In this document: positions 36,022 through 56,086 of the stretch, in pieces
Layout of the letters: every line of letters begins with the position of its first letter
Position numbering within the stretch: the first letter of the stretch is position 1
Origin: an uncultured Gammaproteobacteria bacterium
Lineage (GTDB): Bacteria > Patescibacteriota > Microgenomatia > Levybacterales > UBA12049
Assembly: GCA_964507055.1 (NCBI GenBank)
Contig: CAZDOJ010000001.1
Span: forward strand, 206,793 to 270,792
Direction of reading: 5' to 3'
Length of the DNA: 64,000 nucleotides
The notes under the pieces: generated by a model
Told to the model about the DNA's origin: nothing
The model's database searches: none
The model's input: only the letters and a program-made list of their open reading frames with translations
Program-made: the position numbers and the translations under genes

Positions 36022-37261
36022 TACCTTCTATATCTTCCCAAGTTTGACTATTGGGTTGAGATATAAATTGTTGTTTCCCATTCTCTAGGATTACTTCCCA
36101 CTTCTTCATAATAAAAGGTAAAGCATTTACACGCTTTTCGTTATTTCCTGCCCAGTCATTAAGAGACTGCTCCAATATTTCTGGGCCTTGCATAAAGAAT
36201 ACAGCTGGAAGAATAGTTTCAGAATGTTCTTTACTTAAATCAGCGATTTGATGTACCCCCCAAACATATCGTTCTAGCTGTTTTGCTCGTGCCTCGACTG
36301 TAGCTGGACTATATCTCCATGTATATGCTTCCGTAGCAGTCTTTACTTGTTTGCCATCCACAATAGCATTTACCCCAAGTGCAAAATCATCTAATACGAC
36401 ATGAGGTATACCTACATCTTTAACCCATTTTGTATCCCAAGCCATTAAGGCTCCAATTACGACAAGATTTGATTTATTTGTATAACTTGGAAGTAACTCT
36501 CTTGGCGTCATACCCATAATTATCTCTTCAGTTTCTGTATGATCTTTATATCTACCTGATACAACAGCCGTCCCATCTTCTTCTTCAACAATACCTTTAT
36601 ACGCCTCTTTATATAGTTCTGCTATAGCTTTTGGTGTTGGAAAAGAGTTTGCATCGAGACACATACTAATTGGATGGTTATAATAATTTGCTACATCGTT
36701 TCCAATAGTTAAGGCATTTGTTTTTCCAGGCGTAGGAGTATTAATGTGAATAAAACGCATATTATCACTTTCTGTTACAGCATAGTTTTGATCAACTTGC
36801 TTGTCAGAAATATCCTCAGGTAAAATCCCTTCTCGAGATATTCTTTCCTGTACTGCTCCTTGCGTTTGCATGAAATTTCTAACAATTTGCTCACTTGCTC
36901 CACCATCAGTGCAACCATTTGTTACCAATATTATAACTACGTCAGCTTCTGATGGGATGTCTGCTAAAGCTAATGTACCTAATGTTGATTCAAGAAAATT
37001 CTTTTCATTATGAATTGGCATAATAATTGAAAAATGACTGTCCTTGGCTTTAATACCTGTCGTTCTTTCCCATTTATCATTCTGTTCCTCTTTTGCAATC
37101 ACCGCAATGTCTCTTTGACACACTTTTTCACCAGAGATTAATCGATTATTTATTCGATGTGTTACAGCTTGTAAAGAATGTTGCGTCTCTGTTAAGCTTG
37201 CCTCTTTCCATCCGGGAGGATTCTTAGAAAGAAAATATACTGGTGCTGTTTCTTTATTCAT
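36014..37261 (-). CDS. GT2-like glycosyltransferase-domain protein (divergent)
   Basis: N-terminal FSIIMPIHNEKNFLESTL ... VVIILVTNGCTDGG resembles the GT2 NDP-sugar-binding region. The C-terminal half is unassigned. Confidence 0.4.
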   Translation of the reverse strand: MNKETAPVYFLSKNPPGWKEASLTETQHSLQAVTHRINNRLISGEKVCQRDIAVIAKEEQNDKWERTTGIKAKDSHFSIIMPIHNEKNFLESTLGTLALADIPSEADVVIILVTNGCTDGGASEQIVRNFMQTQGAVQERISREGILPEDISDKQVDQNYAVTESDNMRFIHINTPTPGKTNALTIGNDVANYYNHPISMCLDANSFPTPKAIAELYKEAYKGIVEEEDGTAVVSGRYKDHTETEEIIMGMTPRELLPSYTNKSNLVVIGALMAWDTKWVKDVGIPHVVLDDFALGVNAIVDGKQVKTATEAYTWRYSPATVEARAKQLERYVWGVHQIADLSKEHSETILPAVFFMQGPEILEQSLNDWAGNNEKRVNALPFIMKKWEVILENGKQQFISQPNSQTWEDIEGTK

Positions 37262-37374
37262 ATTTTATTTGATTAAAATCTTTGTGAGAAATAGTATTTA
37301 TTACATCTGTAAGATACTGTTAAACAAGAACCCGCTCAATGTGTAACGGTGAGGTAATGTCTCAGAATTTTCAT

Positions 37375-37662
37375 TTATGTTATCGGTATATATAAACCGT
37401 AATAAGAGCTTTCATTTCTTTTTGGAAGCCCAAGTCTTATTCTATGTGCTGCCAAACTATTAATAAGCTCGCGTATTCTGTTTTGTCCTTTACTAATATA
37501 GATGTCATCAATATATTCATATCCCCTACTTGGAGATGTTTTCGGGCTTAATGTAGTATCAAAAATCATATTCGTGTGAATATACATATCGAACATTAGC
37601 ATTGTACTTTGGGTATTTGGGCTTTTCATTGACAGGTGAGTCAATGCTCTTTCTGAGTGCAT
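37375..37662 (-). CDS. small protein, paralog A of a three-member family (IFDTTLSP...RGYEYIDDIY...IRLGLPKRNESSYYGLYIP)
   Basis: Shares motifs with products 39100-39327 and 39345-39575. The true start is likely an internal Met (~75-80 aa). Divergent from the HTH/GAF gene. Confidence 0.45.
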   Translation of the reverse strand: MHSERALTHLSMKSPNTQSTMLMFDMYIHTNMIFDTTLSPKTSPSRGYEYIDDIYISKGQNRIRELINSLAAHRIRLGLPKRNESSYYGLYIPIT

Positions 37663-37704
37663 AAATTAGAATCTAAGTTGTAAGCAGATTATCTGCTTGT
37701 TATA

Positions 37705-38535
37705 ATGCAAAAAATGAATCACTTAGCGTCTGCGTTAAAAGATTACTATACGAAAAGAGACGGTAAGATTATTTTTATAAATAACTGTTCTCTTAATAGA
37801 CTCGCGTTATTGATGTGGGAAGAGCTTCATTTTAGTCAGATCGATGCGAGTGTCCTTTCCAAAGTAATTAACGGCAAAAGACTCTTTACAAATACACAGC
37901 TTGAGGCATTTTGCAAAGTATTAGATATCCCTTCAAAAGAAAAATCTTATTTGTTTTATTGCCTAAATCAAGATTATTGTGATCGATACAATATTTCTTT
38001 GGATGATTACTTCTTATCTAAGGATTCTGTTTTGGAGCTTTTGAGGAAATGTTTGAATGAAATGGTTCAGACGAAACCTATTTTTGATACCCAATTGCCG
38101 CAAATAATTGAATCATTTACGAAGAATATTACTGACACATCTATGAATAGTGTCTATGAAAAAAATGTTTTTGAAGTTCTTGGAACATCGTTATTCTTTA
38201 AGGCGAAACGATTAATTAATTTTAAGCACGGCTCGTTATATATTGCTGATGATGGTACGCTTGCTCGTGTATATGCTTCATCGCCTGTTTTATATAAAGT
38301 CTTTCCAAGACAAACCGGAACTACGATGAGTGTATACAAGCAACAACGTACCTTTACTTTTCCAGCGGATTATATACTGAATTTCCATCCTGAATTAAAT
38401 CAATTATCTATTGGCTCGGATTTGGTGATACCACTTATATACAAACAGAAGACATTTGGAGTTCTTTCGATGCTGTCGGATAAAGATACTACATTTACCA
38501 AAAAGGACATCACTACTCTACAAAATTATCTTTAG
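37705..38535 (+). CDS. putative regulator with weak HTH-like N-terminus and GAF-like C-terminal domain
   Basis: N-terminal ...SVLSKVINGKRLFTNTQLEAFCKVLDI (XRE-like helix pattern, weak). C-terminal ...GSLYIADDGTLARVYASS...VIPLIYKQKTFGVLSM (GAF-like). Confidence 0.35.
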   Translation: MQKMNHLASALKDYYTKRDGKIIFINNCSLNRLALLMWEELHFSQIDASVLSKVINGKRLFTNTQLEAFCKVLDIPSKEKSYLFYCLNQDYCDRYNISLDDYFLSKDSVLELLRKCLNEMVQTKPIFDTQLPQIIESFTKNITDTSMNSVYEKNVFEVLGTSLFFKAKRLINFKHGSLYIADDGTLARVYASSPVLYKVFPRQTGTTMSVYKQQRTFTFPADYILNFHPELNQLSIGSDLVIPLIYKQKTFGVLSMLSDKDTTFTKKDITTLQNYL

Positions 38536-38536
38536 T

Positions 38537-39103
38537 TTATTCTATGGACTCCGTAGCCAAACCTTTTTCCACAAGTTGTCGTATATAAACTGATTTTGGA
38601 AGATTTTTTTTCTTAGAGATGATATTAAGCTTATTTACCATCTCTGTCGGAAAAAGCACATTATACTTTTTATATTTCTGGATGGGATTACATACTAAAG
38701 CTTCCTTCAAAATCTTAAAAAGCGTTTCTTCAGTATATTCGTATATATAGATGTTTTTGTGTAGGTTCAATTGATCTGAAATTAAAACATCTGGTAAAGC
38801 ATCTTTTGATTTAAGCATAATAATCTCCTTTCCTTGTTGTATTGCATTGGATATCTCAAAACCAACATGTACGCTTGGAAATGTGCATTCTGCTATAACA
38901 ATATCGCACTTTCCTAATTTTTTATAAAAGGTATTAAAATATTCGTTTCTCTTCTCGGCTGTCCATGTAACAAGGGTGTTAGCTGTAACAGAAAGTGCAT
39001 GAGTCACAGTATGATCTGAAGATGTTAAAAAATCGATGATATGTGTTAATTCTTGTTTTCTTTGGACATCTATTTCAAGGGGTGCAAGAAAAGCAATTTT
39101 CAT
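38537..39103 (-). CDS. nucleoside 2-deoxyribosyltransferase-like (NDT/DNPH1/SLOG-like) domain fused to C-terminal ribbon-helix-helix DNA-binding domain
   Basis: N-terminal MKIAFLAPL...CDIVIAECTFPSVHVGFEISNA resembles the NDT/DNPH1 active-site D..G..FE.G.A pattern. C-terminal NVLFPTEMVNKLNIISKKKNLPKSVYIRQLVEKGL has an RHH (CopG-like) pattern. Overlaps upstream small paralog B by 4 nt. Confidence 0.45.
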   Translation of the reverse strand: MKIAFLAPLEIDVQRKQELTHIIDFLTSSDHTVTHALSVTANTLVTWTAEKRNEYFNTFYKKLGKCDIVIAECTFPSVHVGFEISNAIQQGKEIIMLKSKDALPDVLISDQLNLHKNIYIYEYTEETLFKILKEALVCNPIQKYKKYNVLFPTEMVNKLNIISKKKNLPKSVYIRQLVEKGLATESIE

Positions 39104-39327
39104 AAATTTGATTCCTTCATTGGGATATATAGTCCGTAGAATGAACTTTCATTTCTTTTCGGCATTCCTAGTCGGATTTCGTTTACTTCCAGAATTTGTA
39201 AAAATTCTCTTGAGCTGTGTCGTCGTTTATCAAGGTATATATCATCAACATATTCAAATCCCCTCTTTTGAGCAGTTGAAGGGCTCAATGTTGTATCAAA
39301 AATAGTATTTGTACTCAATATATTCAT
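39100..39327 (-). CDS. small protein, paralog B (75 aa)
   Basis: MNILSTNTIFDTTLSPSTAQKRGFEYVDDIYLDK...IRLGMPKRNESSFYGLYIP. Translationally coupled to the NDT-RHH gene. Confidence 0.5.
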   Translation of the reverse strand: MNILSTNTIFDTTLSPSTAQKRGFEYVDDIYLDKRRHSSREFLQILEVNEIRLGMPKRNESSFYGLYIPMKESNL

Positions 39328-39344
39328 CCTATTGGATTGTTATA

Positions 39345-39575
39345 TTATTTTTGTTTTGAGCAATACAAACCAAAATAATGTTTTGATGTTTTTTTCGGAG
39401 AACCTATTTTATATCCTTGAGTATTTGCGAATTCTAAAAGCTCTAGAAGTGTTTGGTATAAATTTGGAATATCTTCTATGTGCTGATAACCTTTTTTCAA
39501 TGCGTTTGAAGGAGTAAGCGATGCATCAATCACATCAAGTTCATTCTTTGCAATAATCTGTTCACAGAGACACAT
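39345..39575 (-). CDS. small protein, paralog C (76 aa, more divergent)
   Basis: Same motif order (..D.SLTPSNALKKGYQHIEDI....Y.IGSPKKTSKHYFGLY); sits between the XRE regulator and paralog B. Confidence 0.4.
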   Translation of the reverse strand: MCLCEQIIAKNELDVIDASLTPSNALKKGYQHIEDIPNLYQTLLELLEFANTQGYKIGSPKKTSKHYFGLYCSKQK

Positions 39576-39637
39576 ATCCTGTGAAATTTATATCAAAAGA
39601 ATTTATTTCTGTCAAGTATTTGATAACAAATAATTGA

Positions 39638-40438
39638 TTAAGATGAAAAAAGTTTCTCAGTATTCTTATCGGCAGGATGGTACATAACTAGTTGAAATCT
39701 AGGGTCATTTATAACCTTTGCTGTAGAGACGTGAAAGCTTAGTGTTTGATATTTACCATTATAAGTATCTTGCATCGTTTTATATTCATAATCAAATAGT
39801 TTTTTCCCATAGGTTTCTTGATTTACTTCTGGCCAGAGTTTTCTGAATTCCTCAAATTGCATCAAATCTTTAACCAGATTCTTGTACCATTTTTCATTTT
39901 GATATTGCTCATTTTCTCCTTTAAATGCGGCTATTTGTGCTATCGCAAATGATTTTAAACTATTTTGATCTTCACCTTTCTTAACAATTACAGAAAATTG
40001 TTCTTTAGGAAAAAAAGGAAATGATAAAAAGCTAGGCTTATTTTCGATGATCCATGATAATTGGTTTGGATTCATTTTTGCAGTAAAAAGAGTATGTTTA
40101 TTTGCATATAGCCATCGGAAGCTAAAATCCATTAAATAAGCCGGATATCTCCATGTATCAATTTTTTCTTTAGTTTCTTCTAAAATATTACTGATTTCTT
40201 GTTCTGTCGGTAAATATCCTCCAACGAGTAAAAAATGACCTTTTTCTTGATGTGTTAAATTTAAAGCATTGATAATTCTTTCGGCAGTATCTCTGTTGGG
40301 TTTTCCTACTCGTCCTTGCTCAATCTTTGAGAGACGGCTTGTGTCTTTCCAACCCAAACTTAGTGATAAATCAACTTGAGAAAGCCTTTTCCTTAGCCGA
40401 TAGTCTTTAATTAATCCTCCTAATGTTGCAGTCATCAT
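39638..40438 (-). CDS. XRE-family HTH transcriptional regulator with ~200-aa C-terminal domain
   Basis: N-terminal LGGLIKDYRLRKRLSQVDLSLSLGWKDTSRLSKIEQGRVGKP = canonical XRE helix-turn-helix; 266 aa. First gene of the minus-strand string XRE-C-B-NDT/RHH. Confidence 0.65.
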   Translation of the reverse strand: MMTATLGGLIKDYRLRKRLSQVDLSLSLGWKDTSRLSKIEQGRVGKPNRDTAERIINALNLTHQEKGHFLLVGGYLPTEQEISNILEETKEKIDTWRYPAYLMDFSFRWLYANKHTLFTAKMNPNQLSWIIENKPSFLSFPFFPKEQFSVIVKKGEDQNSLKSFAIAQIAAFKGENEQYQNEKWYKNLVKDLMQFEEFRKLWPEVNQETYGKKLFDYEYKTMQDTYNGKYQTLSFHVSTAKVINDPRFQLVMYHPADKNTEKLFSS

Positions 40439-40487
40439 ATAGCAGCATTATACCTTTTTATAGGTACAAGCACAAATTAAGTGTTTA

Positions 40488-41588
40488 TTGATATTTTTAA
40501 TGCTATTAAATTATACTTATATAGTTATGACAGATAGAGAACCACATGGAGTCGCTATTGAGGGACGGCATAGAATTAAAGAAACTCCAGGTATTGAAAT
40601 AGAAATAAATACAAGTAGTAGAGATCTTTCATTAGCTATTGCGAGTTCGACAATGCTTTTAAAAGAGGTATTTGCTGATGCAGATTCTCAGCTCCCGTGG
40701 CTAAAACAGAAAGAGAGCAATGACCAATTTAGTTCAGACGCCGATATAAAACTTCGGCATGTTCATGGATTGCTCGATGCATATAGTGCTATACACAAAA
40801 GAGATGCCCCCACAAAAAATAGGTTTACAAGTAACTGGGGAATGCATTCGGATTATCTTGAAGCAAGAATCAATCAAATTGACGCAAATGTGGAAGCACA
40901 ACAAGAGAAGCTTTATGAAGAATCTACTAATTGGACCACTCAAGATGAAAGAAAAGTGGTCCGCGATGCTCATAAATTTGCAGCAAATTTAACAAAGGAT
41001 CAAAAAGATATTCTTTATTCTTCAACAGGTTTGTCTCCCGAAAAGGTTAAAGAAAAATTAGGTCGTTGGGGAATTACGGTTGGTGCTAATGTTGCCTCAA
41101 CATATGCATTAGATGGAACTGCAGTCATCGCTGGGCTTGCTTTGACAAAAACAGGTATACAAGAACATGTTAGTACAGAAACACTTATCGGTTTCTTAGC
41201 TGCCAGTTATGGTGTTTGGTTTAAAGGATTATACGAGAACGTGAAAGAAAATTGGAAGCTATTAGAAGAGCAGGGAGTAAGTACGAGTGCTTTATCAAAA
41301 GCGTTCCATGACTATTCTAAGTCTAAAGGGTGGAGTGAACGCTCTCAAAGACTTGCAACGGCTGCCGGTTACGTAGGTTTAGAAATAGCGAAAGAACTTC
41401 CTTTTTATCTTGGAGCATTTGGATCAGCAACATTTTTTGAGGGGATTTCAGATAAGGATGCAATAACTTTCCTTGCAGGTGCGAATATTGGTGGAGGATT
41501 TTATGAGTATACACTTGCAAAAGGTACTAAAATGGCTCGCAAGTGGATGGGGCGAAGAACTCAAAAACCTGAAAGGCCTAGTCGTTAG
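40488..41588 (+). CDS. hypothetical protein with Gly/Ala-rich amphipathic C-terminal half
   Basis: Intact 366-aa ORF divergent from the XRE regulator; no motif recognised. C-terminal ~170 aa rich in G/A/small residues (WGITVGANVASTYALDGTAVIAGLALTKTG...). Start may be the internal MTDREPHG. Confidence 0.4.
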   Translation: MIFLMLLNYTYIVMTDREPHGVAIEGRHRIKETPGIEIEINTSSRDLSLAIASSTMLLKEVFADADSQLPWLKQKESNDQFSSDADIKLRHVHGLLDAYSAIHKRDAPTKNRFTSNWGMHSDYLEARINQIDANVEAQQEKLYEESTNWTTQDERKVVRDAHKFAANLTKDQKDILYSSTGLSPEKVKEKLGRWGITVGANVASTYALDGTAVIAGLALTKTGIQEHVSTETLIGFLAASYGVWFKGLYENVKENWKLLEEQGVSTSALSKAFHDYSKSKGWSERSQRLATAAGYVGLEIAKELPFYLGAFGSATFFEGISDKDAITFLAGANIGGGFYEYTLAKGTKMARKWMGRRTQKPERPSR

Positions 41589-41589
41589 C

Positions 41590-42177
41590 TTATGCGGCTT
41601 TATCTAATTCAATAAGATATTTTGAAATTATTCCTTCTTCAATGTATATCGCTTTAGTATCAGGATCTAATTGTTTAAATCCTTCAATTGTTCCTCTACA
41701 CATAGGGCTTCCACATTGACATTGGAGGCCTTCTGCTACTGGATCATATTCCATAGCTGCATAATCTACTGAAACTTCATCCCCTTTAGGCATATCTTTT
41801 CTTGCAACAACTTCAATTCTGCCCGTGGTCTCTCCTTCTTCTCTTTCAACAATACGAATATATGCAGTTGGATCACAAGAATGGTTGGTAAAATGCCCAA
41901 AACTTGGTGTACCATCAGGATTTTTTGGATCAAGATGCTCAGTTGGACCATATTGGAATGTATATACTGTTGGGTGGTCAAGTATTGGACCGGTGATTGT
42001 GAAGATAACATCGCCTTTATTGATGGGTTCTTTTGCAATAGTACCAAATTGGCCTTCAACCATATTACTCTTAACAACCGTGACAATACCATTATCAGGA
42101 AGCACTCTTTCGGGTGTTCTGCGTTGTTCAGTTAGCTGTGCTGGCTTAGCACTGATTCCTCTTTCAGTCATGAGCAA
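41590..42177 (-). CDS. SET-domain protein (putative lysine methyltransferase)
   Basis: SET signature FTNHSCDPT (NHSC), EVSVDY (ELxxDY-like), post-SET Cys cluster CQCGSPMCRG; 195 aa. Confidence 0.8.
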   Translation of the reverse strand: MLMTERGISAKPAQLTEQRRTPERVLPDNGIVTVVKSNMVEGQFGTIAKEPINKGDVIFTITGPILDHPTVYTFQYGPTEHLDPKNPDGTPSFGHFTNHSCDPTAYIRIVEREEGETTGRIEVVARKDMPKGDEVSVDYAAMEYDPVAEGLQCQCGSPMCRGTIEGFKQLDPDTKAIYIEEGIISKYLIELDKAA

Positions 42178-42183
42178 ATTATA

Positions 42184-43308
42184 CTATAAGATATTAATAT
42201 TTGCAATATGCAAAATAGGTTTGGGAATGGCATGATAATTAGAGTATAGAGAAAACGTATATGCACCGACATTTCTAAAAATAAGCTTATCTCCTGCCTG
42301 TAAGTCTGAAGGCAGAGAAACACGCACAGCTAAAGTATCGTCGGGGTCAAGTGTATTACCTGATATACTAAAAGTTTCTTTTTTACCTGACTTGAAATAC
42401 TCTATGGGATAATTTAATTTACCTCTACTTTCAAGGATTTCAATAAGCCCATGATAAACTCCCATGTCAACAAATAACCATTTATTTTTTATTCGCTGAA
42501 CTTTCCTAGTAATAGTAGTCACAAGCGTTACTGCATCTGCAACAATTATTCTTCCCGGCTCAACCCAAAAAGAAATACCTTTTGGAAATTCTTTGATCTC
42601 TGTGTTTACTACTTCAGCTATATCTTCAATTGGAGGAGATTTTAAAGATTTATATTTAACTGGGAAACCACTTCCGATATTCATAATTCGGAAAGTTGGT
42701 AACGAGTTATAATATCTCCTAAAAATAGCATTACAATATTTAAGAGTAGCTTTCCAGGGCTCAAGTGACATTGTTTGAGAGCCTACATGAAAACTCATGC
42801 CGTAAATATCAATTTTATTTTCAACTGCATAATTTAAAATAACTTCAATATCTTGACTTGATGCTCCAAACTTATCAATATACTCATAGAATGTACCTTC
42901 TGCTGGTGGAAGAATTCTTAAGAAATATTTTTTATTTTGAGCATATTTCATAAGCATTTGAAGTTCCTCTAGTGAATCAAACGTAAAATTTTCTACTCCA
43001 AACTCAATGGCTGACTTAACTGTTGATGGGGTTTTAATGGGATGTGTTAAAAGCACTTTATTTGTATTAATACTTAAGGATTTTAGTATTTTAACCTCTC
43101 CTATAGTAGCCGCATCAAAGAAGCTCCCTTGATCTGCAACTGTCTTTAATATATCGATTTGTGGATTAGTTTTAACGGAGTAGAAAGTTTTAAACTTAGG
43201 AAATAGCTTTTTAAAAGCAGAATAATTACTGTTAATCTTGTTAAGATTCAGTATATAAAAAGGAGTTTTTTTATCCCTAATAAAAGCCGCGAGCTCCTGC
43301 GACGCCAT
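42184..43308 (-). CDS. PLP-dependent decarboxylase of the Orn/Lys/Arg/DAP-decarboxylase (alanine-racemase-fold) family
   Basis: PLP-Lys motif FYSVKTNP, FHVGSQ, EPGR. The expected C-terminal G-P-T-C-D motif reads SGNTLDPDD, i.e. Asn at the usual catalytic Cys position. Confidence 0.65.
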   Translation of the reverse strand: MASQELAAFIRDKKTPFYILNLNKINSNYSAFKKLFPKFKTFYSVKTNPQIDILKTVADQGSFFDAATIGEVKILKSLSINTNKVLLTHPIKTPSTVKSAIEFGVENFTFDSLEELQMLMKYAQNKKYFLRILPPAEGTFYEYIDKFGASSQDIEVILNYAVENKIDIYGMSFHVGSQTMSLEPWKATLKYCNAIFRRYYNSLPTFRIMNIGSGFPVKYKSLKSPPIEDIAEVVNTEIKEFPKGISFWVEPGRIIVADAVTLVTTITRKVQRIKNKWLFVDMGVYHGLIEILESRGKLNYPIEYFKSGKKETFSISGNTLDPDDTLAVRVSLPSDLQAGDKLIFRNVGAYTFSLYSNYHAIPKPILHIANINIL

Positions 43309-43405
43309 TTTTGTAGTATATCTTATATTCTTTCAAAATAAAATATAGTATATTGACATTTATTATGAAAAAGGGAACAATGAGTTTAGTCTTATTCTTT
43401 AAAGT

Positions 43406-44212
43406 ATGCATCTTACAAAGGTTGCTAAATTTGTTTTAGGTTATTATATTTTTATCCTCATTTGGTGGACTTATTCCTATTTCTTTAATCTGCACGAAAA
43501 TCCATATAGCTTTATCTATCAGTTTGCATTTGGTTTAATTCCTTTGTTAGGAGGAATTGCAGGAATAATAAGATCAGCGAAATGGGGAATGTTTAAAAGT
43601 AAAGTTGGAATGGCATTATTTTTCATTTCTATGGGTCTCATAACTTGGGGCATTGGGCAAATGTTTTGGTCACTTTATTATAATTGGCTTATGCAAATTG
43701 AAATACCATATCCCTCACTGGCAGATGTTGGCTACATACTTAGCTGGCCTCTATGGACTATTGGTACTATAAATTTGTCTTATGCAACAGGTGCGAAGTT
43801 CTCTTTAAAAAATATTAGAGGAAAAGTACTTCTTTTTACTTTACCTGTTCTACTTATATCTCTTTCATATTACCTTCTTATTATTGTTGCTCGTCAAGGT
43901 TTATTAAGCGATTTTGAAGGTGGGGCATTTAAAGTATTTTTTGATCTTGCTTACCCAATTGGAGATGTTGTTATACTTGCTCTTGCTGTACTCGTTTATG
44001 GTCTGTCTTTCAACTATATTGGGGGAAAGTTTAAATGGCCAATAATAATGATTTTAGTGGGTTTTCTTGTAAATTATATTGTTGATTTTTCGTTTTCTTA
44101 TACAACTACCAATGGAACTTATTTTAATGGTCATTGGGTTGATATACTTTTCCCAACAGCAATGGCTTTAATTGCCTTTGGTGTTAATAGCTTTGATACT
44201 AAAGATAGTTAG
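43406..44212 (+). CDS. hypothetical polytopic membrane protein (about 8 TM)
   Basis: Very hydrophobic 268-aa ORF with aromatic-rich helices; no soluble domain. Confidence 0.45.
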   Translation: MHLTKVAKFVLGYYIFILIWWTYSYFFNLHENPYSFIYQFAFGLIPLLGGIAGIIRSAKWGMFKSKVGMALFFISMGLITWGIGQMFWSLYYNWLMQIEIPYPSLADVGYILSWPLWTIGTINLSYATGAKFSLKNIRGKVLLFTLPVLLISLSYYLLIIVARQGLLSDFEGGAFKVFFDLAYPIGDVVILALAVLVYGLSFNYIGGKFKWPIIMILVGFLVNYIVDFSFSYTTTNGTYFNGHWVDILFPTAMALIAFGVNSFDTKDS

Positions 44213-44257
44213 ATGAGGTTGATAATTCTCCCAAATCTGATATAAAAGAAGCGAGGC

Positions 44258-44542
44258 GTGGATATGGATATATATTCGGAATTAGCAAAAAAAATAATAA
44301 GAGAACAAGAATCTATAATAGGTCCTGTAGCTTTAGAACAAGCTCGTAAAGTTAGTGGACTTATTATTGATGGTGATGCTGAAAATATTACATTTAATGG
44401 CAATAAAAAAGAGATTATAGAAAATTTAGTAAAGCAGTATGAACATCTTTTTGGGCTAACTTCTGTAGAAGTTTGCCGAGAAGCAGTAAAAAGTCTTATT
44501 TCTCAGGCACCAAAAGATGATGTTCCACAAGTACTTCTGTAA
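44258..44542 (+). CDS. hypothetical small protein (94 aa)
   Basis: Intact ORF between the membrane protein and the histidine kinase, same strand; no motif. Confidence 0.3.
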   Translation: MDMDIYSELAKKIIREQESIIGPVALEQARKVSGLIIDGDAENITFNGNKKEIIENLVKQYEHLFGLTSVEVCREAVKSLISQAPKDDVPQVLL

Positions 44543-52634: not shown

Positions 52635-53330
52635 TTATTTCTTTAAGAGGTCGGGGCGGAATTTCTTTGTTTTCTCCAATGCTTTTTCATATCTCCAGTC
52701 GTTGATCTTTTTATGATCTCCTTGCAAAAGAACTTCGGGTACATCTTGTCCATCGTAGGAACGAGGTTTGGTGTAGTGTGGATATTCGAGGAGGATTTGT
52801 CCTGCTTGAGAAAATGATTCATCTTCAGTAGCACCTTGGGTAATAACGCCATCAATAAGCCTGGTGATACTATCAGTTATGAGCATGGCAGGGATTTCTC
52901 CACCGGTCAGTACGAAATCTCCAATCGACACTTCTCCATCAACATATTTCATGATGCGGTCATCAAATCCTTCATAGTGTCCGCAGATGATGATGAGATG
53001 ATCAAGCTGAGAATATGCTTTGGCATGTGTTTGCTTATACGTCTCGCCTCCTGCTGCTGTCAAAAGGATTTTCCTCTTTACTTCACCATCTGATTTGAAG
53101 TTCGCCTTTGCCTTTTCAATTGCTTGATGAACGACATCAACTTTCAAAACCATCCCAACTCCCCCACCATATGGCGTGTCATCTACCATCTGGTGTGACC
53201 CGATCCCGAATTCACGGATGTCGATGAGTTCTATCTCTACGAGTCCTTTCTCCTGAGCCCGTTTCACAATAGATTCAGTAAATGGCCCAGTGAACATTTC
53301 AGGAAATAACGTAAGAATGCTTATTTTCAT
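52635..53330 (-). CDS. trmD: tRNA (guanine37-N1)-methyltransferase
   Basis: SPOUT knot motifs: ILTLFPEMF, DDTPYGGGVGMV, LICGHYEG.DDR. Confidence 0.9.
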   Translation of the reverse strand: MKISILTLFPEMFTGPFTESIVKRAQEKGLVEIELIDIREFGIGSHQMVDDTPYGGGVGMVLKVDVVHQAIEKAKANFKSDGEVKRKILLTAAGGETYKQTHAKAYSQLDHLIIICGHYEGFDDRIMKYVDGEVSIGDFVLTGGEIPAMLITDSITRLIDGVITQGATEDESFSQAGQILLEYPHYTKPRSYDGQDVPEVLLQGDHKKINDWRYEKALEKTKKFRPDLLKK

Positions 53331-53435
53331 AGGTGTATTGTATCAAATTTAAGAATATTGCTAAATAGCGTTCGGCTTATATAAATAGTCAAAAACAAAA
53401 AGTTTAGAGTATAATATGTTTAGAAATAAAACACT

Positions 53436-54800
53436 ATGATTATCAGGCCAAGACTAAATGATTACTACAACTTGCCATTAAGACAAGAGAATGTTGATTT
53501 TGCAATTCCATTTTTAGATGAAGACATACCTCTCTATTTAGATCCTTTTTTGCTATGGAAAAGTCCTTCTCAAATGGATAACGGTATTCACTCAATGATT
53601 ATGAACGCCTTTAATTACATAGGGCACTTGTATTTGAAAGATAGCGAAGAAGCTATTAAAATTCTGATAGATTTATCTGAATGCAATGAGGTCGGATTGG
53701 GTGATTCAAAAAGTAAAAATGGGAAAAAAATAGGAATAGATTTTGCAAGAAAAATATTATCTCCATTCGCAGACATACCTCAAGTTAACCTTCAGGGCTT
53801 TACTCATTTTGAGATACTTCAGATTTTAGTTGAAGGTTTCTCGAAAGATCGAGTTAGCGATATATCATGCAACTTAATTAAGTCTTTTTTAATTGACTAT
53901 ACAATACAAGAAGCACAAAAATATAAAATTCCTATGGAAATGACGGAAGTTAGCATTTTTGATGTTAAAAAATCTAAAATTGTAGTAGAGAGAAATAATC
54001 TTCCACTAAACCCTGACACTAAGCAGCCGATACTTTTTGTCCCTAAAAGATGGTTACGTTTTGTTCCCTGGATTAATTTTGAAAACTACTATAATGAATA
54101 TATTGCTGCCTCTCAAAAAATATTATCTGGGCAAGTGATACCTAGAGTTGAAATTTTAGAATTTAATAGAAGAAATTATGACCAAGTAGAAGCATATGTA
54201 AAAAGGAAACAACTTGAACAAAAAGATTGTAAAAATGATCCTCTATTTACACAGATACCAATTCTTTCTTCAAAAAGAAAAAAAAATACGATATTGAAAT
54301 TACCTACTGGGAAAGAAAATAATGCAGATAAACAATATGAAGATAATTTATCTCCACTTTTAGCTTCTATATTATATCCTGAATTAGATTTTGCAAAAAC
54401 TCAAAGCCGAACTGTTTCAGGTATCCTAATTCGAGATTTAATATTTTATAATAATATCTCTGATCCATTACTTAAAGAACTTCACGAGAACTATAATTCT
54501 AAGCAACTTGTTTTTGAATTAAAAAATGTTAAAGAATTAAATTCTGATCATATTGATCAATTAAATCGTTATCTAAATAATGAATTTGGTCAGTTTGGAA
54601 TTATATTTACAAGAAATTCCCCGCCCAAAAGTGTTTTTAAGAATACAATCGATTTGTGGGCAGGGCAGAGAAAATGTATATTAATTCTTGATGATAAGGA
54701 TCTTGAATTAATGTGCAGAGTCTACGATAATAAACAAAGAAAACCATTAGACGTAATTAATATGAAGTATAGAGAGTTTATAAGAGCATGCCCATCGTAG
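53436..54800 (+). CDS. hypothetical protein with C-terminal PD-(D/E)xK-like nuclease motif
   Basis: 454-aa AT-rich ORF. C-terminal YPELDF ... ILIRDLIFYNN ... QLVFELKNVKEL fits E / hhhhD / hhE-h-K spacing of restriction-endonuclease-fold enzymes. N-terminal ~300 aa unassigned. Confidence 0.5.
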   Translation: MIIRPRLNDYYNLPLRQENVDFAIPFLDEDIPLYLDPFLLWKSPSQMDNGIHSMIMNAFNYIGHLYLKDSEEAIKILIDLSECNEVGLGDSKSKNGKKIGIDFARKILSPFADIPQVNLQGFTHFEILQILVEGFSKDRVSDISCNLIKSFLIDYTIQEAQKYKIPMEMTEVSIFDVKKSKIVVERNNLPLNPDTKQPILFVPKRWLRFVPWINFENYYNEYIAASQKILSGQVIPRVEILEFNRRNYDQVEAYVKRKQLEQKDCKNDPLFTQIPILSSKRKKNTILKLPTGKENNADKQYEDNLSPLLASILYPELDFAKTQSRTVSGILIRDLIFYNNISDPLLKELHENYNSKQLVFELKNVKELNSDHIDQLNRYLNNEFGQFGIIFTRNSPPKSVFKNTIDLWAGQRKCILILDDKDLELMCRVYDNKQRKPLDVINMKYREFIRACPS

Positions 54801-54801
54801 T

Positions 54802-55179
54802 ATGAATAAACAAGAAGTTGATATTTTTTTGAAATTAAAACCGCAATTAAAAAGTGCTTATGAAGAGTTAAGTCTTCTATCTAAAAAAGCACCTACTGAG
54901 GAAATTAATAAATTTAAGCTTAAATTTATTAATAGTATAATTTTAAGAGCAAATAAGATTCTGGATAAACCATATATGCCGTTCCCAGAGGAATTTGAAT
55001 TATTTGACGAAAATGAAATGCCTAATAATAGTGATGTAGTATTTATTCTTTCTCATTATTTAACATCTTTAGAGAAATTGAGATGTGATAATATTAGTAC
55101 GGAAAATGACTATACATGGTATTGGATTATAAATGGAAGTTTAACTGATCAAGTAACAGATCCACCTACAATTAAATAG
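54802..55179 (+). CDS. small hypothetical protein (125 aa), paralog of the next gene
   Basis: Shares PNNSDVVFILSHYLTSLEKLR / PTYSDVVLIISQYETAMEEFKK and N-terminal patterning with 55187-55591; start 2 nt after the upstream stop. Confidence 0.45.
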   Translation: MNKQEVDIFLKLKPQLKSAYEELSLLSKKAPTEEINKFKLKFINSIILRANKILDKPYMPFPEEFELFDENEMPNNSDVVFILSHYLTSLEKLRCDNISTENDYTWYWIINGSLTDQVTDPPTIK

Positions 55180-55186
55180 TACGATA

Positions 55187-55591
55187 ATGGATAAGAGTCA
55201 AAAAAAATTTCACTTAAAAGCAAATATTGATAGTTATCTATTACTAAGAGACATGCTATTAGTCCAAAAAAGAGAATTTGGTAATTTTTCAAGTAAAAAA
55301 GCTGATGGACAACTTAATTTAACAAAAGTTAATATTGTGAATAGAGTACTTGAACCCCTTAAGGAAATTTTAAAAGAAGAACCTTCTTACAAATTTTTAG
55401 ATATACTTAATTCGGATGAGTTGCCTACTTATAGTGACGTTGTATTAATTATAAGTCAATATGAAACAGCCATGGAAGAATTTAAAAAACATAATTACTT
55501 AAAAGATGAATATAAATCCACACATTATAGTGATGTGTATAGATGGATGACTTTAGAAAATCCGCCAGATTTTTATAAAAACCGTCGTTAA
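55187..55591 (+). CDS. small hypothetical protein (134 aa), paralog of the previous gene
   Basis: See previous entry; ends 2 nt before the convergent KH gene. Confidence 0.45.
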   Translation: MDKSQKKFHLKANIDSYLLLRDMLLVQKREFGNFSSKKADGQLNLTKVNIVNRVLEPLKEILKEEPSYKFLDILNSDELPTYSDVVLIISQYETAMEEFKKHNYLKDEYKSTHYSDVYRWMTLENPPDFYKNRR

Positions 55592-55592
55592 C

Positions 55593-55835
55593 TTATTCCT
55601 TATCCAATTCAGCGAGGGAGATTTTTATTCTTAGGTTGTATTTCATTGCTTTGATCTTCATGATGTTTCGGATACTTCGGATGACTTTACCTTCTTTTCC
55701 GATAACCTTACCCATATCATCTTTATCAACAGTGATAGTGAAGATATTCATACCATCCTCTTCATGCTCGTCGATTTGCACGGCATCAGGTTGGTCTACA
55801 ATAGCTGAAACAATAAAGTGGAGTGTGTCTTTCAT
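55593..55835 (-). CDS. KH-domain RNA-binding protein (YlqC/UPF0109-like)
   Basis: KH GxxG loop (VIGKEGKVIRSIR); conserved position after rpsP. Confidence 0.75.
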   Translation of the reverse strand: MKDTLHFIVSAIVDQPDAVQIDEHEEDGMNIFTITVDKDDMGKVIGKEGKVIRSIRNIMKIKAMKYNLRIKISLAELDKE

Positions 55836-55858: not shown

Positions 55859-56086
55859 TTATTTAGTTAACGCTTGAACAGTTGCTGAAGGTTGTGCACC
55901 TTGACCCAACCAATAATTGTATCGTTCCATGTTAACCTGTTTTTTACTATGATCTGTTGATTTTTCGTACCAACCAAGCATATCGATGAATCCGCCATCT
56001 CGCTTGCTGCGTTTTTCTTTCACAACAATGCGGAATTTGCGTTCGCCCTTTTTGCCTGTTCTTGTTAATCGAATTACTAATGCCAT
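55859..56086 (-). CDS. rpsP: 30S ribosomal protein S16
   Basis: MALVIRLTRTGKKGERKFRIVV... canonical bS16 N-terminus; 75 aa. Confidence 0.9.
   Translation of the reverse strand: MALVIRLTRTGKKGERKFRIVVKEKRSKRDGGFIDMLGWYEKSTDHSKKQVNMERYNYWLGQGAQPSATVQALTK

Follow-up and report, generated by a model that had tools for sequence, protein, structure and literature searches.

Why should an operon of ribosomal-protein and tRNA-modification genes be broken by a block of foreign composition on the opposite strand, and what does that block encode? The question is raised by a 64,000-nucleotide stretch of DNA (the window; assembly GCA_964507055.1, contig CAZDOJ010000001.1, positions 206,793 to 270,792 of the forward strand), in which the minus-strand genes rpsP (55859-56086; Pfam Ribosomal_S16), a KhpA-like KH-domain gene (KH; 55593-55835; Pfam KH_KhpA-B, E=5e-19) and trmD (52635-53330; Pfam tRNA_m1G_MT, E=6.9e-56) lie in that order. 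Between the last two, bordered by one core gene on each side, sits a 2.2-kb cassette of three plus-strand genes, A (53436-54800, 454 amino acids), B1 (54802-55179, 125 amino acids) and B2 (55187-55591, 134 amino acids). An earlier reading of the letters and their open reading frames (ORFs), the sequence-only reading, had given this gene order and these coordinates, and the ORF map agrees with both, as does Pfam for the flanking genes. That reading also suspected a defence-type module, and is partly supported, in that a PADLOC scan assigns the trio to the candidate system PDC-M36. The odd nuclease in a ribosomal operon is now precisely identified as a PDC-M36/DUF8370 trio.

The assignment covers the full length of all three proteins. 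Protein A matches the PADLOC model PDLC04597 (PDC-M36A) at E=7e-217, with residues 2-454 aligned to profile positions 3-457 of 457, and in the same scan B1 and B2 match one each of the two PDC-M36B models, PDLC04599 (E=6.6e-45) and PDLC04600 (E=2e-33) respectively. The precomputed label Pfam PF28123 (DUF8370) is attached to a protein with 100% identity to A (P0001) and to each of the 120 homologs listed; the Pfam copy scanned with A did not return this model. PDC-M36 has been described as cassette CAS_00134, FAM_01399>>FAM_00303>>FAM_00303, in which a large gene precedes two members of a single gene family (Payne et al., bioRxiv 10.1101/2024.01.29.577857), and the phage-defence candidates (PDCs) as a whole are 145 untested candidates that were picked since their homologs sit inside BREX, DISARM or type I restriction-modification (RM) loci (10.1101/2024.01.29.577857). 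The trio in the window shares the large >> B >> B order on one strand and is equal in protein sizes; judged by these profile matches, it is a full-length member of PDC-M36, and A is a DUF8370 protein. No structural difference separates it from the catalogued cassette. It differs in its setting, a chromosome of the candidate phyla radiation (CPR) and within it a ribosomal operon, in lying outside any BREX, DISARM or type I RM locus, and in a B2 that lacks the acidic tail present in most homologs. The family is thus already catalogued, as a candidate defence system only. What is modestly new here is the structural assignment of its effector, the strictness with which many loci keep the A-B-B' architecture, and the variable defence-cargo site in the rpsP-KH-trmD operon of a CPR bacterium, which together make a first structural and evolutionary description of an uncharacterised candidate family.

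The cassette stands out from its surroundings in composition. Its GC content is 0.287, whereas all the remaining 2.2-kb segments of the 64 kb average 0.385 (sd 0.026); at z = -3.8 this is the lowest value in the entire window. GC at third codon positions is 0.17-0.22 in the cassette genes and 0.32-0.42 in the adjoining ones, so that the AT-richness remarked on earlier is borne out by both measures. Relatives were recovered with TrmD as the probe and were recognised as Patescibacteria/Microgenomates-like by gene order among other marks. In 11 of them (L010, L012-L019, L027 and L033) the genes rpmF-nusB-rnc-rpsP-KH-trmD are contiguous and are followed by the same convergent pilus genes, with only 7-102 bp between KH and trmD. 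The closest relative, L009, a 1.61-Mb chromosome whose TrmD is 90% identical, has a 2.5-kb gap at exactly the KH|trmD junction, filled by one AT-rich gene (GC 0.28-0.33; L009:3574-5913, minus strand) that is oriented to the operon as the cassette is. The 779-amino-acid product of this gene matches the AAA_13 ATPase family (E=7e-40) and the PADLOC model PDC-S06 (E=2.4e-72), with weaker matches to mad3 and AriA. Similarity between the window and L009 stops ~40 nt upstream of the trmD ATG. By composition and synteny, the segment at ~53366-55592 is a horizontally acquired insertion between the KH stop codon and the trmD promoter, and the suspicion that it was an insertion, not a lineage-wide feature, holds in the comparison with relatives. 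The absence of rimM and rplS had been noted alongside the interruption; both genes are indeed missing from the rpsP-KH-trmD locus of the window, but neither is found at the locus in any of the 11 relatives, and since these uninterrupted relatives lack both too, the absence is a trait of the lineage and not an effect of the insertion.

Because sister genomes hold different genes at the KH|trmD junction, we regard it as a site of variable cargo: PDC-M36 occupies it in the window and PDC-S06/AAA_13 in L009 (occupied, n=2), and it is empty in the 11 relatives. Defence hotspots elsewhere, as in E. coli and P. aeruginosa, are likewise places where variable cargo lies between conserved core genes. 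The likeness is that different candidate defence genes stand at one core-gene junction in sister genomes, with the junction empty in more distant relatives. The differences are that only two genomes are occupied here, that the flanks are the ribosomal-protein/trmD operon of a CPR bacterium and that the junction has no distinguishing marks; no convincing terminal repeats or target-site duplications were seen at the cassette edges, and no integrase, tRNA or Rfam element was found at the site. In L009 a GC-rich hairpin (ATCCTGAAC...GTTCAGGAT) lies between the AAA_13/PDC-S06 gene and KH. This genome and other relatives, Patescibacteria-like in gene content and synteny, carry the labels 'uncultured Gammaproteobacteria', 'Acidiferrales', 'Methylomirabilota' and 'Limnocylindrales', which are probably taxonomic mislabels of metagenome-assembled genomes.

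Protein A consists of an N-terminal domain of unrecognised fold (residues 1 to ~210), a helical linker modelled at low confidence (residues 210-276) and a C-terminal PD-(D/E)xK nuclease domain (residues ~279-454, nt 54270-54797) that has the alpha/beta core of the restriction-endonuclease-like fold. An alignment of the window protein with 37 relatives at 20-62% identity (38 sequences) showed Asp334, Glu361, Lys363 and Gln375 to be conserved in at least 90%, giving the D...ExK...Q signature of these nucleases, and a structure model would place Asp334, Glu361 and Lys363 on strands 2 and 3. The sequence-only reading had proposed a PD-(D/E)xK active site in this region; the peptides it cited are present in the translation and the fold and motif stand, but Asp318 of its 'YPELDF' peptide is not conserved among the 38 sequences. 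In the N-terminal domain Asp30, Asp36-Pro37, Glu82, Gly89, Gly96, Asp138, Ser141-Asp142, Thr156 and Pro203 are near-invariant, and the domain therefore has a conserved polar site of its own. Sequence profiles add little to this picture. Pfam PDDEXK_3 matches residues 356-391 only, at E=0.013 and 16.3 bits, under its 22-bit cut-off; a PHROG match on the N-terminal half is to a family of unknown function; an NCBIfam scan returned no matches for the cassette proteins; and sequence searches of A and of the B proteins against solved structures gave nothing significant.

The closest structural matches of A are FokI, N.BspD6I/R.BspD6I, LlaBIII, AspBHI, MspJI and EcoT38I, and its C-terminal domain is of the FokI cleavage type. 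The likeness to the type IIS enzymes FokI and BspD6I lies in this cleavage domain. Sequence identity to them is 7-11%, the N-terminal domain is not recognisably like their recognition domains, two small non-nuclease partners are added, and the cassette is without a cognate methyltransferase. From MspJI, AspBHI and the Mrr-like type IV enzymes A differs in that neither an SRA-like nor any other known reader domain was detected in it, and in the extra B and B' genes. A resemblance to Shedu (SduA, DUF4263) had also been proposed earlier, and the two do share the PD-(D/E)xK superfold and the arrangement in which a C-terminal nuclease comes after an N-terminal region that varies. Membership of Shedu was rejected: neither Pfam nor PADLOC gave a DUF4263 or SduA hit at E<=1, structural similarity is weak, the system is not a single gene, and SduA is not the closest nuclease.

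The two small proteins align as one family, with 28% identity over 96 amino acids (BLASTP, E=1e-9), in agreement with the earlier view that their genes are paralogs. A model of B1 (predicted local distance difference test score, pLDDT, 90.9) predicts a three-helix bundle with a small three-stranded sheet, for which the fold neighbours were generic helical bundles only; no HEPN motif was present. The search with B2 found 153 homologs, and most of the B2-type proteins (P0242-P0357) finish in a poly-acidic (D/E) tail of 5-25 residues. Such a tail may mimic DNA or act in autoinhibition, and would have been lost from the window copy.

How widely the module is spread was judged from 2778 homologs of A found by word index and from an exhaustive search that gave 1577 clusters (50% identity) at E<=1e-3. 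The best 120 of the 2778 are ~454 amino acids long and 60-76% identical to A, and come from Gracilibacteria, Scalindua, Nitrospira and Desulfobulbaceae, among others; the range of 56-76% identity takes in Bacteroidota-like genomes, a cyanobacterial and a Methylobacterium plasmid and nine IMG/VR contigs as well. In every annotated context the trio recurs with much the same sizes (A 442-454, B 124-127 and B' 127-140 amino acids). It adjoins a SIR2_2 protein and two rve transposases in Nitrospira, and Mrr_cat and IS110 in a 1.8-Mb genome; it is present in a Bacteroidota-like genome and another small-genome bacterium, and is carried on a Leptolyngbya megaplasmid and on a 36-kb Methylobacterium plasmid. 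Among the nine IMG/VR contigs one has a portal gene, one a transposase, and two have the trio downstream of a methyltransferase-rich cluster; no homologs were found among the phage records of INPHARED. The family thus extends over many phyla, plasmids and prophages.

The A-B-B' architecture is strictly kept. Of the 68 loci that extend 1 kb or more past A, exactly two B genes follow in 59, one in 6, three in 1 and none in 2, the last being likely artefacts of ORF calling. In L114 and L115 three B-type genes follow A (L115: 135, 137 and 139 amino acids). Since 180 neighbour proteins spread over 162 clusters, there is no conserved fourth gene. The cassette encodes A, B1 and B2 only, with no DNA methyltransferase; of its flanking genes, trmD codes for a tRNA methyltransferase. 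No methyltransferase neighbour is conserved across loci; L176 has two DNA methyltransferases upstream of the trio. Annotated among the neighbours are ResIII helicases, BsuBI/PstI restriction enzymes, type II/III methyltransferases, AAA_15/21 ATPases, a CBASS S_4TM effector, a Schlafen-like helicase and HNH, and besides these integrases and coupling proteins of type IV secretion systems. One distant homolog of A (22% identity) stands alone on a plasmid of Bacillus mycoides, with a Gabija-like TOPRIM+UvrD pair on one side and an integrase with McrBC on the other; a second is carried as Tn3 cargo by Sinorhizobium. PDC-M36A was the one PADLOC model that these distant relatives matched. In all 15 long loci compared, the cassette exceeded its flanks in AT content. 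Distribution, neighbourhood and AT-richness together are the signature of a mobile accessory module of defence type. Regions upstream of A are not conserved across loci, and no conserved operator was found there; three closely related trio loci (L095, L097 and L103) share a conserved motif ~70 nt upstream of A (GGGGAAnAnnGTGTTTTCnCCnCTnC...CGAAAACGA...TATAATC ATG), absent from the window, which may be a subgroup-specific regulatory element.

The promoter scan placed a putative sigma70-like promoter for the cassette within the upstream edge of the inserted block (53366-53435, plus strand), with a -35 box TAGTCA at 53386-53391, an 18-nt spacer and a -10 box TATAAT at 53410-53415 that ends 20 nt ahead of the A start codon; the TATAAT-like box predicted near 53410 was therefore where it had been placed. 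The genes follow one another on the same strand with 1 nt between A and B1 and 7 nt between B1 and B2. We consider it reasonably probable, if far from certain, that the cassette is a horizontally acquired, self-contained A-B-B' operon of PDC-M36 at a variable cargo site, encoding a gated or targeted nuclease that restricts invading DNA. The operon would be transcribed from its own promoter, and its three genes would be translationally coupled. Protein A would be the effector, its conserved N-terminal domain recognising a target or signal and its FokI/BspD6I-like PD-(D/E)xK domain (Asp334, Glu361-x-Lys363, Gln375) cutting DNA, and the B and B' paralogs would most likely pair in a hetero-complex by which the nuclease is gated or targeted. 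As the cassette has no methyltransferase, the cell would be protected from its own nuclease by gating or target specificity and not by cognate methylation. Phages or other invading DNA would be restricted as a result.

Several observations weigh against this account. No informative homolog or fold match was found for the N-terminal domain of A or for the B proteins, and for that reason the roles given to them are guesses. The distant homologs in Bacillus mycoides and Sinorhizobium have no B genes, and the window B2 ends in KNRR, without the acidic tail of its homologs. The defence neighbourhood is read from a list of neighbours, and the hotspot from two occupied genomes plus one relative, L011, where a small ORF lies in a gap of 595 bp at the junction. 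The names PDC-M36 and DUF8370 occur in none of the main texts of the literature searched, and no published test of the system was found. PDC/HEC candidates, M36 not being one of them, have been assayed in other studies; one saw protection against phage for 4 of 8, a second for 0 of 2.

The success rate in such assays bears also on the possibility that the trio is a selfish addiction module resembling a toxin-antitoxin pair, in which A would be a toxic nuclease and B and B' its neutralisers, loss would kill the cell, and there would be no meaningful protection against phage. That many PDC candidates fail phage assays would fit such a module, as would the tight coupling of the genes with small partners downstream of the nuclease, the spread on plasmids, transposon-rich regions and prophage-like contigs, and a cassette that is always more AT-rich than its host. 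We nevertheless think it unlikely. Distant homologs of A without B genes are hard to square with an obligate toxin, a 454-residue two-domain 'toxin' with a strongly conserved N-terminal domain and two paralogous partners is atypical of toxin-antitoxin pairs, and RM and other defence genes abound around the trio; addiction also overlaps with abortive-infection defence, and so the two explanations are not cleanly exclusive. Slightly less likely again is a methylase-free enzyme of type IV-like or type IIS-like action, whose N-terminal domain would bind modified or foreign DNA while the FokI-like domain cuts nearby, with B and B' as accessories of specificity or assembly and no gate. The roll of best structural matches, from FokI to EcoT38I, points in this direction, as do the lack of a methyltransferase in the cassette and the succession of an N-terminal and a C-terminal cleavage domain, but no reader domain is recognisable in A and the conservation of two B paralogs would be left unexplained.

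The remaining two alternatives take the cassette out of immunity altogether. In L090, L092 and L093 (three unrelated contexts, a Bacteroidota-like genome and two plasmids) UmuC, UmuD or DinB genes lie directly upstream of the trio, with GIY-YIG genes nearby in L090 and L093, which would suit a DNA-damage or repair nuclease module working with Y-family (UmuC/DinB) polymerases. Such neighbours, however, occur in 0 of 80 metagenomic loci and 3 of 87 overall, two of the three cases are plasmids, on which umuDC is common cargo, and the window copy has no such neighbour; we reject the linkage as a general feature on the metagenomic count and hold a repair role to be very improbable. As for a conserved, lineage-specific housekeeping part of the ribosomal-protein operon, the cassette does lie inside rpsP-KH-trmD and is there in all 13 contigs of this organism, from several sequencing runs. 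It is nonetheless missing from the 11 related genomes, stands on the opposite strand with a foreign composition, and has close homologs in unrelated phyla and on plasmids; the empty sites, and the different cargo in L009, refute this explanation, to which we give practically no credence.

Going beyond the restriction of invading DNA by a gated or targeted nuclease, PDC-M36/DUF8370 might be a nuclease immune system of three components that works by a new mechanism, in which the N-terminal domain would be a new sensing or second catalytic module, B and B' would be the trigger sensor or gate, and KH|trmD would be a defence hotspot specific to the CPR lineage and tolerated through a leaderless trmD promoter. 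We offer this extended version tentatively and hold it, taken as a whole, to be less likely than not. Reduced CPR genomes are thought to hold few defences. The present comparison suggests that they swap candidate defence cargo at a fixed KH/trmD site, and if PDC-M36 is active, mechanistic studies could start directly from the Asp334/Glu361/Lys363 set and the B/B' pair.

A putative trmD promoter at 53337-53364 (minus strand; promoter scan) has a -35-like TTAGCA and an extended -10 element, TGaTACAAT. In the window and in its three closest relatives, L009, L010 and L012, the distance from the end of the extended -10 (TGnTAnAAT) to the trmD ATG is exactly 6 nt. From this we infer that in this clade trmD, within what is by the classical view a single operon, has its own promoter, independent of read-through from rpsP, and that its mRNA is probably leaderless or near-leaderless. 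More distant relatives (e.g. L015 and L017, with gaps of 7-17 bp) have no room for an extended -10. Possession of its own promoter by trmD would be one plausible reason why the site tolerates cargo. The putative promoter also marks the trmD-side limit of the insertion.

At the opposite border the stop codons of B2 and KH are convergent with 1 nt between them (55589-55595). Both a terminator and a hairpin were looked for at this junction and none was found (z = 0.28), and the convergent transcripts could therefore overlap. Cassette transcripts would run antisense into KH and rpsP, and KH/rpsP transcripts likewise into the cassette.

Beyond rpsP the ORF map shows rnc, nusB and rpmF. On the far side of trmD come the convergent pilus genes, the first of them, a 247-amino-acid gene of the pilus cluster, 2 nt from trmD. 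In L009 an additional NUDIX hydrolase gene, not in the window, lies between trmD and the pilus genes (L009:6728-7261, plus strand), and this position is a second variable spot beside trmD. Elsewhere in the window a second, milder low-GC stretch (37000-44500, GC 0.30-0.32) contains genes for GAF-domain, HTH_3 and SET-domain proteins and an Orn/DAP decarboxylase, together with three ORFs without a Pfam hit, and may be another accessory region.

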